Below the pieces are notes generated by a model. The model saw only the letters and a list, made by a program, of their open reading frames with translations, was not told the origin of the DNA and ran no database searches. From contig NZ_JBEPMB010000001.1 of the NCBI RefSeq assembly GCF_040545545.1, positions 807,002 to 871,001 of the forward strand: a stretch of DNA of 64,000 nucleotides, given 5' to 3'. The number at the start of each line of letters is the position of its first letter. The first letter of the stretch is position 1. Below are positions 17,466-63,741 of the stretch, piece by piece. This DNA comes from Rhizobium aquaticum. Its GTDB lineage: Bacteria > Pseudomonadota > Alphaproteobacteria > Rhizobiales > Rhizobiaceae. The translations under genes were made by a program, and so were the position numbers.

Positions 17466-17918
17466 TCAGGCGAACATCTGCCGATACTGGATGAAGCCGG
17501 ATTTCGATGCGATGCGGTCATACAGCTTCATCGCGTCCGTATTCGTTTCATGCGTCAGCCAGTGGACGCGCGAGGCTCCCTTGGCTATGGCGTCTTCGTA
17601 GACGAATTCGATGAGCTTGCGGCCGATGCCGCCGCCGCGTGAGGCTTCGCCGACATAGAGATCCTGCAGATAGACATAGTCACCGGGCGTCCAGCACGAG
17701 CGGTGGAAGATGTAATGCACGATGCCGACTGCGCGCCCGTCGATGAAGGCGAGGGCGGCAAACATCGGTTCATCCGGATCGAGGAAGCGGCGCCAGGTGA
17801 TGGCGCTGGTCTCGTCGGGAATATCGGTCTTGTAGAAGCGCTGATAGCCCTTCCAGAGCGGCATCCAGATGTCGTGATCTTCTCGGGTGATGGGACGGAT
17901 GGTGACTTCGGCGGACAA
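17466..17918 (-). CDS. GNAT family N-acetyltransferase
   Basis: Acetyl-CoA motif RGGGIGRKL. Start moved to the in-frame TTG 17918, which has an AGGAGA RBS 6 nt upstream; the TTG at 17933 lacks an RBS. Confidence 0.75.
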   Translation of the reverse strand: MSAEVTIRPITREDHDIWMPLWKGYQRFYKTDIPDETSAITWRRFLDPDEPMFAALAFIDGRAVGIVHYIFHRSCWTPGDYVYLQDLYVGEASRGGGIGRKLIEFVYEDAIAKGASRVHWLTHETNTDAMKLYDRIASKSGFIQYRQMFA

Positions 17919-18024
17919 GTGCGTTCTCCTCAAATGGATGAGAGAGGCTATTGCGGCTGAATTTATCCGTCCAATTCAACATGCTGCTAGTTCATGAGCG
18001 CAGTTGATTTGGTCTTCGCCTCAC

Positions 18025-18324
18025 CTAGCGAAACAGTTCCGGCCGCAAATTCACCCGATGGTTCAAGACCTGTCTTATGAAAACACCGGCTTCCGAAGTT
18101 GTATAAAAGATGATGTGAGCCTGAAATGTGAACTGGCGAAGGCCCGGGAACAAATCTTGAGCCATTGGACCCATCAGAGGGAAATCGCTGAGAAGTTCGA
18201 ATGTGCGGGCGAGGCCGGAATGATAAGCCTTGGCTTGATAGGGACCAAACATCTCCGCGGTATATGAGACAATTCCAGATATCTGGATTTGCGCTTTCCG
18301 GGAGATCTTGTAGCGTTCACTCAT
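18025..18324 (-). CDS. Type II toxin, RelE/ParE superfamily
   Basis: ~99-aa ParE-like protein. Overlaps the upstream antitoxin gene by 8 nt. Local GC is lower. Confidence 0.7.
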   Translation of the reverse strand: MSERYKISRKAQIQISGIVSYTAEMFGPYQAKAYHSGLARTFELLSDFPLMGPMAQDLFPGLRQFTFQAHIIFYTTSEAGVFIRQVLNHRVNLRPELFR

Positions 18325-18532
18325 GTTTGCTTTTGGCGAGCGCGCTTTCCAAAATCTCTGCCATCGTCATGGTGCCTACACGCGAGCAGTCTGGATCCTC
18401 AAAACTTGCACGCAGCCGCTGCAATTGCTCGTCGCGCGAGAGCGCGTCCCATGCGGCGATCTCCGCCGGGCTCGGCGTGGCACTCGGCATCACATCAAGA
18501 TGCATTTTTTCTTTCGTGCTCATGGCGCTCAT
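18317..18532 (-). CDS. Type II antitoxin (putative addiction-module component, ParD/CHP02574-like)
   Basis: 71-aa acidic protein directly upstream of and overlapping the ParE-like gene. Confidence 0.6.
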   Translation of the reverse strand: MSAMSTKEKMHLDVMPSATPSPAEIAAWDALSRDEQLQRLRASFEDPDCSRVGTMTMAEILESALAKSKHE

Positions 18533-18595
18533 TCTAACAGATAGTCCTGTGATCCGCCAACTTGCAAATGTCAGCAGAGGCCTCGAGACGTTCGT

Positions 18596-19000
18596 TCACA
18601 AATGCGCAGCCGCATGTATCGTGAACTTCGAAACCTTATCCGGCAAAGCATCGATATCGAACCAGCCGAATTCGGGGAGCTTTTCGGGCTCCATGACGCG
18701 CGGTTCGCCGGTGAAGTCGTCCGTCACGTAGATCAGTGACACCCAGTGGTGACCGTCTTCGGGGAAGCGGTTTTCCGACACGCAGAGGAAGCGGATCTCG
18801 CCGATCGTCAGGCCGCTTTCCTCCTCCGCCTCGCGGCGCACCGCATCGATACAGGCTTCCATGTGGTCGACCTTGCCGCCCACGATGTTCCATGAACCGG
18901 CCTCGGGAAAGCGGGTGCGCCGGTAGAGCAAAATGGAACGGCCCCGTCTGATGATGAGGCCGACACCCAGTCCCGGAAAGTCTGTTCCCGGAAGACCCAT
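18596..19000 (-). CDS. NUDIX hydrolase
   Basis: Nudix box GGKVDHMEACIDAVRREAEEESGL. ATG 19000 abuts the helicase stop at 19002. Confidence 0.8.
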   Translation of the reverse strand: MGLPGTDFPGLGVGLIIRRGRSILLYRRTRFPEAGSWNIVGGKVDHMEACIDAVRREAEEESGLTIGEIRFLCVSENRFPEDGHHWVSLIYVTDDFTGEPRVMEPEKLPEFGWFDIDALPDKVSKFTIHAAAHL

Positions 19001-34352: not shown

Positions 34353-34559
34353 CTATTTGCGAAGAAGTGCCAAGCCTTCTTCTTCGCGGCCTTTTCCGCG
34401 TTCGGCGCGATCCATCATCCGCTTGCGCGCTTCCGAGTCACGAACCACAGCTTGCGTGACGTTCAGGTAGAATTCTTCGAGCTGGACTCCATTCGCGCGC
34501 GCAAGGGCTTCGACCTTGTCGTGCAGATCGCCGGGCAGATTCAATACGATCTTGTTCAT
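34353..34559 (-). CDS. Putative type II antitoxin (68 aa, RHH/CopG-like?)
   Basis: Small charged protein whose ATG overlaps the PIN-gene stop (ATGA). Located downstream of the toxin. Confidence 0.5.
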   Translation of the reverse strand: MNKIVLNLPGDLHDKVEALARANGVQLEEFYLNVTQAVVRDSEARKRMMDRAERGKGREEEGLALLRK

Positions 34560-34978
34560 TGCGCTATCCTGTTCATGATCTCGATAGGCGTCAGAATTTC
34601 GATGTTTCTGAACTTCAGTTCTGATCCGAGAAAGTCACGCTTGTTGAATGTGGCTATGCATCTGCCACTTCCCGCGACCGCGAGTTCCATCAGGTGGTTG
34701 TCCGCTTCGTCGCGGAGATTGGGCCTCCAGAGGAAATATATGTCACAGATGACGCATTTGCCAAGGAAGATGTCGAAAAGGGCTTGCCTCTCGTCATAAC
34801 CTAGTCTGGCATCGGTGAAGATGCCGCTACGGTCGAGAACATCTTCATACTCCAGATAGAGCGCATTGCTCATCAGTGGAGTCAATTTGCCACCAAGGCA
34901 CGCCTCGATGACCTGCGAGGCGGGGCCGCGGCCGATGCAAGCGCCGATGAAGACGTTTGTATCGACCACGATCCGCAT
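34556..34978 (-). CDS. PIN-domain toxin (TIGR00305-like)
   Basis: MRIVVDTNVFI start with conserved acidic residues. ~48% GC, against ~61% for the genome. Confidence 0.7.
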   Translation of the reverse strand: MRIVVDTNVFIGACIGRGPASQVIEACLGGKLTPLMSNALYLEYEDVLDRSGIFTDARLGYDERQALFDIFLGKCVICDIYFLWRPNLRDEADNHLMELAVAGSGRCIATFNKRDFLGSELKFRNIEILTPIEIMNRIAQ

Positions 34979-37173: not shown

Positions 37174-38643
37174 ATGGTCGCCGTTCAGGAAACCATCGAT
37201 CAGGTCCGCAAGATCGACGTGGACCAGTATAAATACGGCTTCGAGACGACGATTGAATCCGACCGCGCGCCGAAGGGCCTTTCGGAGGATATCGTCCGTT
37301 TCATCTCCGCCAAGAAGCAGGAGCCGGACTGGATGCTGGAATGGCGTCTGGAGGCCTATCGCCGCTGGCTGACGATGGAAGAGCCGACCTGGGCGCGCGT
37401 CAACTATCCGAAGATCGACTTCAACGACATCTATTACTATTCCGCGCCGAAGTCCGCTTCCGGTCCGAAGTCGCTGGACGAGGTCGATCCGGAGCTGCTC
37501 AAGACCTATGAAAAGCTCGGCATTCCGCTGAAGGAACAGGAAATCCTGGCCGGTGTGAAGCCGTCGCGGATTGCCGTCGACGCCGTGTTCGACAGCGTGT
37601 CCGTCGTCACGACCTTCAAGGAAGAGCTGGCCAAGGCCGGCGTCATCTTCATGTCGATCTCGGAAGCGATCCGCGAGCATCCGGATCTCATCAAGACGTA
37701 TCTGGCCACCGTCGTGCCGGTCACCGACAACTATTATGCGACGCTCAATTGCGCCGTCTTCACCGACGGGTCCTTCGTCTATGTGCCGAAGGGCGTGCGT
37801 TGCCCGATGGAACTGTCGACCTATTTCCGTATCAACGAGAAGAATACGGGCCAGTTCGAGCGGACGCTGATCATCGCGGAAGAAGGCGCTTACGTTTCCT
37901 ATCTGGAAGGCTGCACCGCGCCGCAGCGCGACGAGAACCAGCTGCATGCGGCTGTCGTCGAGCTGATCGCCATGGATGACGCCGAAATCAAGTATTCCAC
38001 CGTCCAGAACTGGTATCCGGGCGACAAGGACGGCAAGGGCGGCATCTACAATTTCGTCACCAAGCGCGGCGATTGCCGGGGCAAGAATTCCAAGATCTCC
38101 TGGACGCAGGTCGAGACTGGTTCGGCGATCACCTGGAAATACCCGTCCTGCATCCTGCGCGGCGACGGCTCGCGCGGCGAGTTCTATTCGATTGCCGTGT
38201 CGAACGGCCATCAGCAGGTCGATAGCGGCACGAAGATGATCCATCTCGGCAAGAACACGTCGAGCCGCATCATCTCCAAGGGCATCTCGGCCGGCTTCTC
38301 GCAGAACACCTATCGCGGCCAGGTGGCGATCAACCGCCGGGCGGACAACGCGCGCAACTTCACCCAGTGCGACTCGCTCCTCATCGGCGACAAGTGCGGC
38401 GCGCATACCGTGCCCTATATCGAGGCGAAAAACGCATCGGCGCAGCTGGAGCACGAGGCAACCACCTCGAAGATCTCCGAAGACCAGCTCTTCTACTGCC
38501 TCGCCCGCGGCATCCCGGAAGAGGCGGCGATCGCGCTGATCGTCAACGGGTTCGTGAAGGATGTCATTCAGGAACTGCCGATGGAATTTGCGGTTGAAGC
38601 GCAGAAGCTGATCGGGATTTCGCTTGAGGGTTCGGTGGGGTGA
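37174..38643 (+). CDS. sufB: Fe-S cluster assembly scaffold SufB
   Basis: Full-length SufB. ATG 37174 with a GGAG RBS. Confidence 0.9.
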
Positions 38644-38646
38644 GGC

Positions 38647-39549
38647 ATGTCCAGTCCGGAAAACGAGGACGAGATATCTGTTGAAATTGCCTCAGACAAG
38701 GCGATTGTGTCGGTAAAGGGGGCTGCGGCATCTCGGCTTGGCCACTCCCTGGCGGACGTGCTGTCGCCATTTACGAATAGTCTTGGATATGTTGGCGATT
38801 TACTAGCAGTGAAGCGCGAAATGGGAGCTCTCATTGCGGCAAAGCGAGCGAAAGAGAAGCTGGAAAAAGAAGGAATTATTTCCGCTGACATTCCGCCTCG
38901 GGTTCTGCTGCCTTGGCTTGAAGGGGCATCGCTTGTTGATCCGGGGAAAGAAGACACGCTAGTAGATGCCTGGGCGGGACTATTAGCTAGAGCAGCGAAG
39001 TCGTCGGACGCGGCTAACGTATCATACATTGAGACATTGAAGAAGCTGGGCGCGGAGGAAGCAGAACAACTTGCCTTCTTTGTGACGGATACCTCGCCTT
39101 CTTTCGGTGTGAAATTCTATGCTGCTAAGCTTGGTGGTGAAGATACACTGGAAAGCGGCTACTTCGTAGAAATCCAAAAGTACATCAATGAAAGACGTGA
39201 CGGAGTCGAATTAGGTGAAATTCGCGCGAAATTTGAGAATCTCCTTATCCAGAAGATGGCTCAAGTTATTTTTTTTGCGATAAATGGAAGCACCCTGCTG
39301 TCGACTGAATACTATAGGAAGTACGAGCACGCTGTGTCAAATCTTGAGCATCTGGGTTTGATTGAAATAAAGAAGAGCAACGTAGAGATTCCGGTTGGCT
39401 CAGTCGTTGTAATTTGGTTTCAGGTTACAAAATATGCCTTTGATCTATTTTGGGCCTGCCAAGGAGTAGTCACAGCTCACGCTGATTATGGTGTAGATTC
39501 GTTGCAAAAGGCTATTTCGACGCCACCCTTAACCAGAAGAAAGCGCTAG
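38647..39549 (+). CDS. Low-GC hypothetical protein inserted between sufB and sufC (possible Abi-alpha/DUF4393-like)
   Basis: ATG 4 nt after the sufB stop. GC drops to ~40% in the 3' half. No recognisable Fe-S function. The LLPWLEGASLVDPGKEDTLVDAWAGLLARAA block is reminiscent of abortive-infection alpha family proteins; this is a recollection, not verified. Confidence 0.55.
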   Translation: MSSPENEDEISVEIASDKAIVSVKGAAASRLGHSLADVLSPFTNSLGYVGDLLAVKREMGALIAAKRAKEKLEKEGIISADIPPRVLLPWLEGASLVDPGKEDTLVDAWAGLLARAAKSSDAANVSYIETLKKLGAEEAEQLAFFVTDTSPSFGVKFYAAKLGGEDTLESGYFVEIQKYINERRDGVELGEIRAKFENLLIQKMAQVIFFAINGSTLLSTEYYRKYEHAVSNLEHLGLIEIKKSNVEIPVGSVVVIWFQVTKYAFDLFWACQGVVTAHADYGVDSLQKAISTPPLTRRKR

Positions 39550-39611
39550 CGCACTGACTAACGCTCCAAATGCGTGTCGCGTAGGCTTTTCGAAGATAGA
39601 AAGTGAACAAA

Positions 39612-40367
39612 ATGCTTGAGATCAGAAACCTTCATGCGCGGATCGCCGAGGATGGCACCGAGATCATTCGTGGCTTGAACCTGACGGTGAAGGCCGGCGA
39701 AGTGGCGGCCATCATGGGGCCGAACGGGTCGGGGAAGTCGACGCTGTCCTATATCCTGTCGGGCCGTGAGGACTATGAAGTCACCGAGGGCGATATTCTT
39801 TATAACGGCGAGAGCATTCTGGAGCTTGATCCGGCCGAGCGCGCGGCACGAGGCATTTTCCTCGCGTTCCAGTATCCGGTCGAAATTCCGGGCGTTGCGA
39901 CTATGCAGTTCCTGAAGGTGGCGCTCAACGAGCAGCGCAAGCAGCGTGGCGAAGCCGAACTGACAACGCCGGACTTCATGAAGCGGGTCAAGGATGCGGC
40001 GGCGCATCTGAAGATCGCGCCGGAAATGCTGCGTCGTCCGCTGAATGTCGGCTTTTCGGGCGGTGAGAAGAAGCGCGCCGAAATCCTGCAGATGGCGCTT
40101 TTGGAGCCGAAGCTTTGCGTGCTCGATGAAACGGACTCTGGCCTCGATATCGACGCGCTGAAGATCGTGTCGGATGGCGTGAACGCGCTGCGTTCGCCGG
40201 ACCGCGCCGTGATCGTCATCACGCACTACCAGCGCCTGCTGGAACACATCGTGCCGGATACGGTTCACGTTCTCTACAAGGGCCAGATCATCAAGTCGGG
40301 CGACAAGTCTCTGGCACTCGAACTCGAAGCCAACGGCTATGCCGACGTGATCGAAGCGGCGGCTTGA
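39612..40367 (+). CDS. sufC: Fe-S cluster assembly ATPase SufC
   Basis: Walker A GPNGSGKST, ABC signature FSGGEKKR and Walker B. ATG 39612. Confidence 0.9.
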   Translation: MLEIRNLHARIAEDGTEIIRGLNLTVKAGEVAAIMGPNGSGKSTLSYILSGREDYEVTEGDILYNGESILELDPAERAARGIFLAFQYPVEIPGVATMQFLKVALNEQRKQRGEAELTTPDFMKRVKDAAAHLKIAPEMLRRPLNVGFSGGEKKRAEILQMALLEPKLCVLDETDSGLDIDALKIVSDGVNALRSPDRAVIVITHYQRLLEHIVPDTVHVLYKGQIIKSGDKSLALELEANGYADVIEAAA

Positions 40368-51700: not shown

Positions 51701-51859
51701 GGTCCAATTATTTGGTCGGCATGGCATTTGACAAGAGGGAAATGACGTTGTGACACAAAAAAATGTCGCAACAGAGATTCGCATAAACGCCAACGAGCGC
51801 GGCATCGCTGCCACGCTTGATCCAAAACGCCGAACGGGTACGTCCGGTTTTACTTGCCG

Positions 51860-52141
51860 TTACTTGCCGTGACCATTTGCCAGATACGCGGCTGTCGCGT
51901 GCTGAGGCGTCGACTGCGGCACCTTGTGGTGGCTCGCCGTCAGGAATGTCAGAGCCAGTGATGGCGGATGCACCAATTGCAGAAGCGATCGATCGGCGAT
52001 GTCTCCATCGGCGATTGCCTTTGCATGCCAGTCTTCGATGGCTGCGACCATCGGATTGTATGTCGCGGTCCGAACCGCTGCCTTGTAGTTGTCACTAACA
52101 GCTGCAGCGGTAGGAGCCGACACGGTGATTACCTGTGCCAT
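51860..52141 (-). CDS. Orphan hypothetical protein (93 aa)
   Basis: ATG with an AGGACA-like RBS. No recognisable family. The gene ends in a 10-bp tandem duplication. A 220-bp AT-rich region lies upstream. Confidence 0.3.
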   Translation of the reverse strand: MAQVITVSAPTAAAVSDNYKAAVRTATYNPMVAAIEDWHAKAIADGDIADRSLLQLVHPPSLALTFLTASHHKVPQSTPQHATAAYLANGHGK

Positions 52142-52367
52142 GTTCGATTGTCCTGTTGCTCAAGGACCCTCTGTTTCATTGACAGGTGCAGAATAGCGCA
52201 ACTTCTATTATCTGCCGTAAAACAACTTGGTAAAAGTTTATAGAATCCTAAATTGGTTATATTCCCGTTGTTTACCTGTGTGGCGAAGGAAAACTAAGGT
52301 TCGACTGCGGTCTTGAATTCCGTGCGGGAACGTTGCACATCAGGCGCGACGAAGGAGAGGTTCAGCG

Positions 52368-53252
52368 ATGTCCGGTTCGAGAGCAATCGATCATCTTGTC
52401 CTGGCAGTGACGGATCTCGCGACCGGGCGGGCGCGGCTGACCTCGCTGGGATTTACCGTCGCGCCGGATGCTCGCCATCCGTTCGGCACTGAAAATGCTT
52501 GTGTTTTCCTCAAGGACGGAACCTATCTGGAGCCGCTGGCAATTGGCTCTGGTGCAGATAGTCTCGCGACAGCACGCGCTGGCAATGTCTTTACTGCCCG
52601 CGATCGCGCATTTCGGTTCCGTCATGGACCTGAAGGGCTCGAGGCTGTGGTCTTCCAAACCACCGATGCGCAGGCCGATCATCATGCCTATGAGGAAGCC
52701 GGCTTTTCGGCCGGCCGGATGCTGGATTTTTCGCGACCCTTCCGCACGCCGGACGGCGCGGAAAGTGTTGCCTCGTTCCGGCTTGCCTTTGCCGCCGATC
52801 TCCGATCGCCGGATTTCTACGCATTCACCTGCCAGCGCATCAACACGCCGGCTGCGGATCGTTCGGCGCTGATGGCGCATGAGAATGGCGTGACCGGATT
52901 GGCCGGCGTGACCCTGTGTGAGCCGCATCCGCAGGATTTCGCAGATTTCCTGGGTGTTGTCTCGCGCGGCGGTCGGCCCGAGCCGATCGGAGACAGGTTG
53001 GAAATGCCGGCGGGTGGCGCGGGTCTCTCCGTGGTGACGCATTCCGAATTCGAATCACGGTTCGGCCGGAAATATTGCGGTCATGCCCGCGGCTTGAGAG
53101 GCCGTGCAGTTTCGTTTCATGTCGGCTCGCTTGCAGAGACGGCAACACTTTTGCGCCGCAATGGCGTGGTTCACGAGATGATCGGCAACAGGCTGGTCGT
53201 CCCCGAGGCGTCCGGGCAGGGCGTGCTCTATAGCTTTGAGGAACAGGCATGA
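52368..53252 (+). CDS. VOC-family (glyoxalase/dioxygenase-like) two-domain protein
   Basis: Paired betaalphabetabetabeta VOC-like halves. RBS GAAGGAGAGG. The stop overlaps the kdsA start (ATGA). Confidence 0.7.
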
Positions 53253-62958: not shown

Positions 62959-63741
62959 GGCCTTTTCCTTCTCTAGGGTTTGGCAACGCGTCTGGCTGCC
63001 TCTTCTTCTCTGAGACCCTTTATATGTTGCATCGCAGCAATGATAAAGCGCAATTCCGGCAGGTCACCCATGCGCCAGATGCATGACGCCTTGCAAAGGT
63101 CCGATTTTGTTAAGAGTTTTTTAACGCGACGTTGTAGAGGCACGTCTGTGCCTGAAGGAAGGATCTTCGCAGTTGCATCGGCGCCGGTCGGTCGAGCACG
63201 TAAACTGCAGGGGCGAAGACGTTTATGGCGGAACGGATATTCCGTTTTGAAACGACGCTTGCGACGATGATCGGAGGATGTTGGAAGGTTATGCCCAGAA
63301 ATTATAACGCCCGCCGCGGGAGGAGGTGCGGCGGGCGTCATATAAGAGACTGACAACTGGGAGGAGGAGTGTTGCCAGTCATAAACGAGACGCCCTGGGA
63401 GGAGGAGTAGGCAATCTCGAATTCAAATTTCGCGTCTCAGCCGGTTCTGCAGTTCGCTGCGCCCGTCTGATGGTTCAAATATAGATCATCTATTCCGTTT
63501 TGTGCACTGCAAAATAGTCATATGTGGCATGCGCTCATCGCATGGCTTTTGTCTATCGTCTTTGGGGACGATAGCAGGCGTCTCTTAAGATCGTGCTAAA
63601 GCGCCCGCTGCTTCTCCCTGTACATATAGGGATGAGGGCGGGAATATGCGCTAATTTCTGTTGCGATCTTCATGCCGGGTGATATAGAGGCGGCTTCCGT
63701 GCGGGCCGGTTTCTTGAGGAGAGGGTGGGCCTGCTGTGAGA

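Follow-up and report, generated by a model that had tools for sequence, protein, structure and literature searches.

The question that this locus raises is why an essential suf operon should hold, between sufB and sufC, a gene that the close relatives of its host lack. The operon lies in a stretch of 64,000 nucleotides of Rhizobium aquaticum (contig NZ_JBEPMB010000001.1, positions 807,002 to 871,001), called the window below, and the 300-aa open reading frame (ORF) between the two genes is called X. It matched exactly the protein ABID16_000833 of R. aquaticum, a member of the Rhizobiaceae that is now Limnomicrobium aquaticum in the NCBI taxonomy. With modest confidence, we lean towards the reading that X is a horizontally acquired accessory gene of the Abi-alpha type, probably of a defensive or selfish kind, which is co-expressed with suf and spreads by recombination in the flanking genes.

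The gene order was a nifS-like desulfurase gene upstream of sufB, then sufB, X, sufC, sufD, sufS, a gene for a SUF-associated (SufT-like) protein and sufA, as a first-pass annotation of the same sequence had read it. The Suf members all exceeded the curated NCBIfam cut-offs (given in brackets): 921.6 bits for SufB (717), 344 for SufC (213), 266 for SufD (222), 592 for SufS (475), 153.5 for the SUF-associated protein (143.4) and 162.6 for SufA (136.2). The gene sufB occupies 37174..38643 on the + strand; its longest ORF begins at TTG 37162, and the likely start is ATG 37174, which gives 489 aa and matches the relatives. Its last codons, GAG GGT TCG GTG GGG TGA (stop at 38641-38643), stand directly 5' of the start of X. 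A gap of 3 nt (GGC, 38644..38646, +) separates this stop from the ATG of X (38647..39549, +), and an AT-rich spacer of 62 nt (39550..39611, +) separates the stop of X from the ATG of sufC (39612..40367, +). Thus, the ORF announced by the first-pass annotation was present, and the interval that it had set apart (38644-39611) runs exactly from the sufB stop to the sufC ATG, with X as the sole ORF of the insert. The longest sufC ORF starts earlier, at GTG 39603 (MNKMLEI...), whereas all relatives begin at the equivalent of ATG 39612 (MLEI...); the true start is most likely ATG 39612, giving MLEIRNL as in the relatives. Several SufC entries in the databases measure 276-283 aa, a hint that sufC starts are commonly annotated too far 5' at this junction. 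No Rfam family was found within the locus.

X belongs to the Abi_alpha/DUF4393 family (PF14337). Its score against the Pfam profile was 54.4 bits (gathering score 29; E 2.1e-14), and all 28 relatives of X carry the PF14337 annotation, so that the resemblance proposed in the first-pass annotation turned out to be true family membership. The match covers residues 67-245 (38845..39381, +), a part that holds a helical core and the invariant motif LPWLEGAS...WAGL..RA.KS.DA..SYIETLK; in the family alignment the block quoted in the first-pass annotation, IPPRVLLPWLEGAS...WAGLLARAAKS, was the most conserved portion of X. Invariant columns numbered 35 in clade A of the relatives (see below), and 17 of them were retained once clade B was added. 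X had also been described as lacking Cys ligands, which was wrong: it has a single Cys, C271 (codon 39457-39459), and this residue was invariant in 23 of the 23 aligned family members. Since the Pfam match spans only profile positions 12-149 of 196, the C-terminal domain of X is specific to its lineage. An AlphaFold model built on the alignment with the 28 relatives (mean predicted local distance difference test score, pLDDT, 74.8) showed a poorly defined N-terminus, the helical core with the invariant block, and a C-terminal alpha/beta domain at residues ~190-275 (39214..39471, +; pLDDT 90-97) that carries the NLEHLGL and TKYAFD..WAC motifs and Cys271. This domain gave weak resemblance to PAS/Cache sensor folds together with winged-helix-like (DNA-binding) matches. 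No enzymatic fold was detected in X, nor any nuclease domain of the GIY-YIG, HNH, LAGLIDADG, PD-(D/E)xK or EDxHD kinds. NCBIfam and PHROGs gave nothing meaningful, and no Fe-S or Suf family matched X in Pfam or NCBIfam. The PADLOC models PDC-S47, for which no curated cut-off is given, matched X partially and weakly (E 1.5e-5 to 1.3e-4, 19.6-22.9 bits); they matched 15-16 of 23 family members, with a best E of 1.2e-9 among the relatives of X.

When 1.84 billion representatives were searched exhaustively with a profile, 3,330 clusters of the wider family reached E <= 1e-3 and only 15 reached E <= 1e-30. Many of the best-listed wider-family matches covered only the N-terminal ~145 profile positions, which fits a family made of a conserved core and a variable C-terminal module. 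Such a build agrees with the report that DUF4393 genes are strongly enriched among the targets of programmed inversions, beside the specificity genes of restriction-modification and BREX systems (PMC9881135).

The composition of X is foreign to its host. Its GC content was 0.480, and at third codon positions (GC3) it was 0.472 against 0.759 +/- 0.040 for the 47 ORFs of the window with a coding pattern (z = -7.2). Of all 500-bp windows in the 64 kb, the six with the lowest GC lay inside X, which is the strongest low-GC and compositional outlier of the window. The first-pass annotation was right that the gene is compositionally foreign, but the 38-45% GC that it gave for most of the length does not hold: in 200-nt windows, the 5' ~40% of X had a GC of 0.525-0.555, and the low values were confined to the 3' ~55% (0.415-0.475).

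X is also rare. A homology search in 5.8 billion proteins returned ~30 relatives, nearly all of them metagenomic, and the nearest of these was 48% identical to X. A scan of one genome per species (n=185,579) gave a single relative, in Allomesorhizobium camelthorni. A broadened-profile homology search, within the bounds of its word index, yielded almost no further relatives. In the close relatives R. azooxidifex and Mycoplana dimorpha (SufC 90% identity), sufB and sufC are separated by a conserved spacer of 68-69 nt without a gene, and because of these gene-free spacers X is not an ancestral member of the operon in Rhizobiaceae. A syntenic, GC-rich orthologue across the family was not found, and profile searches did not assign X to any housekeeping family. 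Such an orthologue or such an assignment would have counted against the first-pass reading.

The relatives for which the neighbourhood could be read fall into two clades. In clade A, a lineage of ~28 proteins among the 5.8 billion, the order sufB, X, sufC was seen in 8 of 8 distinct readable contexts: the window, a Roseibium metagenome-assembled genome (L001), four metagenomic lineages on long contigs (L002/3, L004, L005-9/13 and L024), and the short contigs L011 and L012, whose flank encodes the SufB C-terminus and, in L012, also the SufC N-terminus. Within clade A the X proteins were 39-61% identical pairwise, and clade B was 27-35% identical to clade A (identity matrix). The A. camelthorni gene (L010) is a clade B relative in the suf slot and the sole clade B case there. 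Since clade A and this clade B gene both occupy it, the suf slot has been colonised by two DUF4393 clades. The three named hosts represent three Hyphomicrobiales families (Rhizobiaceae, Stappiaceae and Phyllobacteriaceae), and the metagenomic hosts, whose SufD proteins share only 35-47% identity, are no closer to one another than these. The claim of a lone foreign gene in the operon therefore needs to be divided: X is foreign and absent in close relatives, but it recurs in at least 8 alphaproteobacterial suf operons. It is a recurrent operon hitch-hiker and not a one-off accident.

The other clade B genes lie elsewhere. In L014 and L019 they stand just 3' of a pccB-like acyl-CoA carboxylase gene (L014:1-300, L019:3-125), with a VapB-like gene as neighbour at L014 and a PIN/FitA toxin-antitoxin pair at L019. 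Those of L021-23 adjoin a PIN_3 toxin-antitoxin module, CoA-metabolism genes, a DNA methylase gene and a HerA-like gene. At L021:5852-9507, the clade B gene was seen beside an MM_CoA-mutase-family gene and an alcohol-dehydrogenase-family (ADH_N/ADH_zinc_N) gene, which we take to be ecm and ccr. Gaps beside other conserved metabolic genes thus also gather clade B genes and toxin-antitoxin modules. Prophages and defence islands are the typical setting of the family, though not a defining one, and clade A departs from it with its suf operon in 8 of 8 contexts.

All 12 DNA copies of X were intact. Synonymous sites were saturated in every pair, and for this reason we compared the proportions of nonsynonymous and synonymous differences (pN and pS) instead of dN/dS: pN was 0.28-0.39 and pS 0.75-0.89 (saturated) among the copies. 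This pattern indicates that the copies are functional and under purifying selection. Furthermore, the similarity of X did not follow that of its hosts. The window and L010 form the most similar pair by their Suf proteins (SufB 0.86, SufC 0.84, SufD 0.56, SufS 0.80) and the least similar pair by X (0.28), and across the loci there was no positive correlation between X identity and Suf identities. In every host the GC3 of X was 0.38-0.52 against 0.75-0.89 in the flanking suf genes. For AT-richness to persist in this way, there must be an AT-rich reservoir outside the sampled sequences or a selection that favours AT-rich codons, for example because they keep down the synthesis of a protein that may be toxic or attract a silencer. 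When X was searched by tblastn in phage and plasmid collections there was no match, and viral contigs gave one distant N-terminal match; these searches thus found no AT-rich reservoir for X.

The junction with sufB is tight in all loci. X starts -4 to +8 nt from the sufB stop in every one of them, by an ATGA or GTGA overlap, by TAATG, or after a gap of 3-8 nt, and this geometry implies that its translation is coupled to that of sufB. The final Gly codon of sufB (38638-38640 in the window) was GGR in 8 of 8 X-bearing loci (window, L001, L002, L004, L005, L010, L011 and L024) and GGY in 3 of 3 without X (L015, L016 and L018), a small sample, which suggests that the junction is co-adapted so that start codons can overlap or ribosomes bind. 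Several X-bearing loci also had in common a purine-rich stretch, GAGGGGAG, within the last codons of sufB. The codon and the stretch together could reflect co-adaptation, through start overlap or a Shine-Dalgarno sequence, or else donor sequence that was transferred along with X.

On the other side of X, the 62-nt spacer did not align with the sufB-sufC spacers of L016, L017 and L018 (global alignment z = -1.9 to -0.7), whereas a control alignment of L016 with L018 gave z = 18. We therefore rejected, at detectable similarity, the idea that it is the native sufB-sufC spacer, although divergence could hide kinship. The foreign segment seems to span the whole intergenic interval, with the native spacer replaced, and divergence alone could give the same result. 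The sufB gene of the window was ~85% identical to its relatives at the nucleotide level along its full length and showed no drop near the junction; the coding sequences on both sides of X look native.

The insert carries no recognisable means of moving by itself. Neither bracketing direct or inverted repeats nor a target-site duplication were found around it, and it contains no transposase or integrase; the ORF list and a repeat search bore out the first-pass annotation on this point. A transposon, insertion sequence or integrative element was rejected, as X is the sole ORF and no repeats bracket it, and so was a type II toxin-antitoxin module, as X is a single 300-aa gene with no partner ORF. 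No sense-strand promoter or terminator was found in the insert. A sigma-70-like promoter match (39311..39340, - strand; TTGACA-18-TATAGT, 11/12) lies antisense inside the AT-rich half of X. The total of promoter-like matches in the region was not above that of shuffled sequence, and the match may be spurious, a by-product of AT-rich foreign DNA. If it were active, it would give an RNA antisense to X and sufB.

How might X live and travel in such a place? Lacking its own promoter and terminator and followed by the essential genes sufCDS, X would be transcribed by read-through with the operon and translated by coupling to sufB. Residence in suf would give it a steady, stress-inducible supply, and the downstream position of sufCDS would make its clean loss difficult. 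By homology, its product would be a single-gene protein of the abortive-infection or defence type, or an otherwise selfish one; such a role appears most likely because of the family membership and of the toxin-antitoxin and defence neighbourhoods of clade B. The helical Abi-alpha core would be joined to the PAS/winged-helix-like C-terminal domain as a candidate sensing or specificity module. The lineage would move between genomes by homologous recombination, with the conserved 3' coding sequence of sufB and the 5' coding sequence of sufC as arms. A route of this kind is suggested by the constant slot, the sharp boundaries without mobility machinery, and the mismatch between X and Suf similarities.

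Several observations weigh against this favoured explanation. Clade A was never seen in prophages, plasmids or defence islands, and residence in one operon only is also expected of a dedicated suf accessory factor. AT-rich copies at synonymous saturation are poorly explained by transfer among GC-rich hosts. Sliding identity of the sufB and sufC of the window against three relatives and the X-bearing loci detected no donor recombination tract in the flanks, a search of low power at ~85% identity, and the failure of the spacers to align could be plain divergence. Moreover, the mechanism of Abi-alpha is itself unknown, which leaves the likeness with little mechanistic meaning (PMC6356687; bioRxiv 10.1101/2025.10.23.684294).

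The point about residence leads to the most serious rival, that X is a lineage-restricted SUF accessory component or regulator, recruited from DUF4393 and made in a fixed ratio with SufB, with its invariant Cys or its PAS-like domain acting in sulfur or cluster handling or in sensing. The finding of clade A in the suf slot in all 8 contexts, each time closely coupled to sufB, is what such a factor would show, and so are the strong purifying selection over a divergence that saturates synonymous sites, the invariance of Cys271 and the weak likeness of the C-terminal domain to PAS/Cache sensor folds; other alphaproteobacteria also keep unrelated co-transcribed ORFs in the gap (PMC4618611, PMC11475020). 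However, the closest relatives lack X, as do nearly all of the 185,579 species genomes; the codon composition of X is foreign in every host, and its similarity does not track the Suf proteins of the host. The Cys and the architecture are common to the clade B genes beside toxin-antitoxin and defence genes far from suf. X matched no Fe-S family in Pfam or NCBIfam, and it is not conserved in the suf operons of related organisms. We regard this rival as unlikely. The same position in three families, the deep divergence among copies and the lack of a detectable recombination tract in the flanks could instead point to vertical inheritance, with X as a member of the operon from an early hyphomicrobial ancestor that was lost nearly everywhere and kept AT-rich by selection, for example as a translation throttle. 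Such a history would need X to have been lost precisely and independently a huge number of times. The two hosts that are closest by Suf carry the most different X genes, of two clades, and long residence should have brought the GC3 of X into line with its hosts, whereas it is foreign in every one of them. We consider vertical inheritance very unlikely.

Sharp boundaries without integrase or repeats are equally what a free-standing homing gene would leave, one that breaks an empty sufB-sufC junction and is copied in by repair from an X-bearing donor. Its low GC, its sporadic distribution, its use of one intergenic slot between highly conserved genes by two clades in different host families, and the weak winged-helix-like matches of the C-terminal domain suit such a gene. 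Of the marks of homing genes, recurrent occupation of a single site and sporadic distribution were thus found, but X has no nuclease signature, and we give this idea very little credence. That X might be a decaying remnant or a spurious, functionless ORF is suggested by its atypical composition and its status as a singleton in cultured Rhizobiaceae. Against this, 12 of 12 DNA copies and ~28 protein relatives are intact, pN lies far below pS, 35 residues are invariant and the domains model confidently; the pseudogene reading is effectively refuted by these conservation data, and we take the remnant idea to be almost certainly wrong.

Compared with these rivals, a more far-reaching form of the preferred reading concerns the slot itself. 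It proposes that, in Alphaproteobacteria, hitch-hikers find a privileged place between sufB and sufC, and that clade A is a selfish or defence gene locked to this slot, without mobility machinery, carried between species only by flank recombination and with its AT-richness selected. X would then borrow the suf promoter and ribosomes through start-stop coupling, and the essential genes downstream would shield it from deletion. We put this forward tentatively, as a view that is rather doubtful at present. In a bolder version, X would stand guard during phage attack, with an activity that depends on how SufB or Fe-S assembly fares.

Other cargo was seen in the same gap. L015 (Logan SRR31342692), the locus with the closest SufC (92% identity), holds at this slot an unrelated AT-rich insert of 334 nt (L015:3667-4000). 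It contains an ORF-like frame, CFYC...CRKCGIDSVI, with two CxxC pairs, which lacks an in-frame ATG and has no match in Pfam; the insert is a different occupant of the slot or its remnant. In the L005 lineage (L005:6888-7382; also L006, L008, L009 and L013), a 164-aa cupin (Cupin_2, 61.5 bits) stands between X and sufC, and in L024 two ORFs of ~72 aa without Pfam match do so (L024:5849-6349). The slot can therefore hold more than one cargo gene.

Some features of the window outside the insert were also observed. A PIN_3 toxin-like gene (34556-34978, - strand; 74.3 bits against a cut-off of 27) lies in a lower-GC patch (~0.52-0.53), 7 nt 3' of the conserved alpha/beta-hydrolase gene that stands before the suf cluster; PIN_3 modules also adjoin the clade B Abi-alpha genes of L021-L023. 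Milder low-GC patches were found at 17800-18400, 51800-52500 and 63000-63700 (500-bp GC 0.50-0.53 against a window mean of 0.604), and an atypical 176-aa ORF lies within one of them at 18201-18731.

The usual places to look for defence and selfish genes are islands, prophages and plasmids; the X lineage sits, apparently stably, inside a highly conserved essential operon, in one slot across bacterial families and without mobility genes. If our reading is true, essential operons would offer accessory genes a platform for expression and a refuge, conserved flanks alone may suffice to target horizontal spread, and defence finders based on islands would systematically miss such genes. X offers a tractable system for the mechanism of Abi-alpha and for the persistence of AT-rich genes, as it is one gene with clean boundaries and sister species without it are at hand. 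Work on suf expression should also take into account 0.9 kb of foreign AT-rich DNA and a possible antisense promoter between sufB and sufC.

In its distribution, X resembles the free-standing homing endonuclease genes of T4-like phages (seg, mob), which are inserted between conserved genes. They are, like X, sporadic and AT-rich, lie between conserved genes without integrase or repeats, and have a phylogeny that does not follow the host. X differs from them in that no nuclease domain was detected, that it resides in bacterial chromosomes and not in phages, and that its relatives also occur at unrelated sites.

As for its product, the founding member of PF14337/DUF4393 is Abi-alpha (ef2833) of prophage 6 in E. 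faecalis V583, which causes premature lysis of phage-infected cells (PMC6356687). Both proteins belong to this family, are of similar size (272 and 300 aa), are encoded by single genes with no obvious partner, and have no transmembrane segment and no recognisable catalytic domain. However, Abi-alpha and most described homologues are borne by prophages or defence islands of low-GC Gram-positives, whereas X, closely coupled to sufB and with no phage genes around it, lies in an essential operon of a GC-rich alphaproteobacterium. The PDC-S47 proteins and the DUF2806/Abi-alpha-like "Belisama" integron cassettes (bioRxiv 10.1101/2024.07.02.601686) are likewise single-gene candidate defence proteins, with weak but consistent similarity to X by hidden Markov models. 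They differ in that they sit in defence islands or integron cassettes and not in a suf operon, and the low scores indicate a distant relation at the family level.

As for the slot, the literature holds two cases in which the sufB-sufC gap is occupied. In Rhodobacter sphaeroides, the hypothetical gene RSP_0439 lies there and is co-transcribed with suf, an arrangement reported to be conserved across Rhodobacteraceae (PMC4618611, PMC6956336), and in Caulobacter crescentus a small "ADP-ribosylglycohydrolase" ORF is co-transcribed from the same gap (PMC11475020). These genes share the operon slot with X but appear to belong to other families, since no such proteins were among its ~30 relatives although Rhodobacter and Caulobacter genomes are well represented. 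Moreover, RSP_0439 is conserved across Rhodobacteraceae, whereas X is extremely sporadic. In the literature we found no paper on an Abi-alpha-family occupant of the gap or on its recurrence. An occupied sufB-sufC gap thus has precedent, and what is new here is the Abi-alpha-family occupant and its recurrence.

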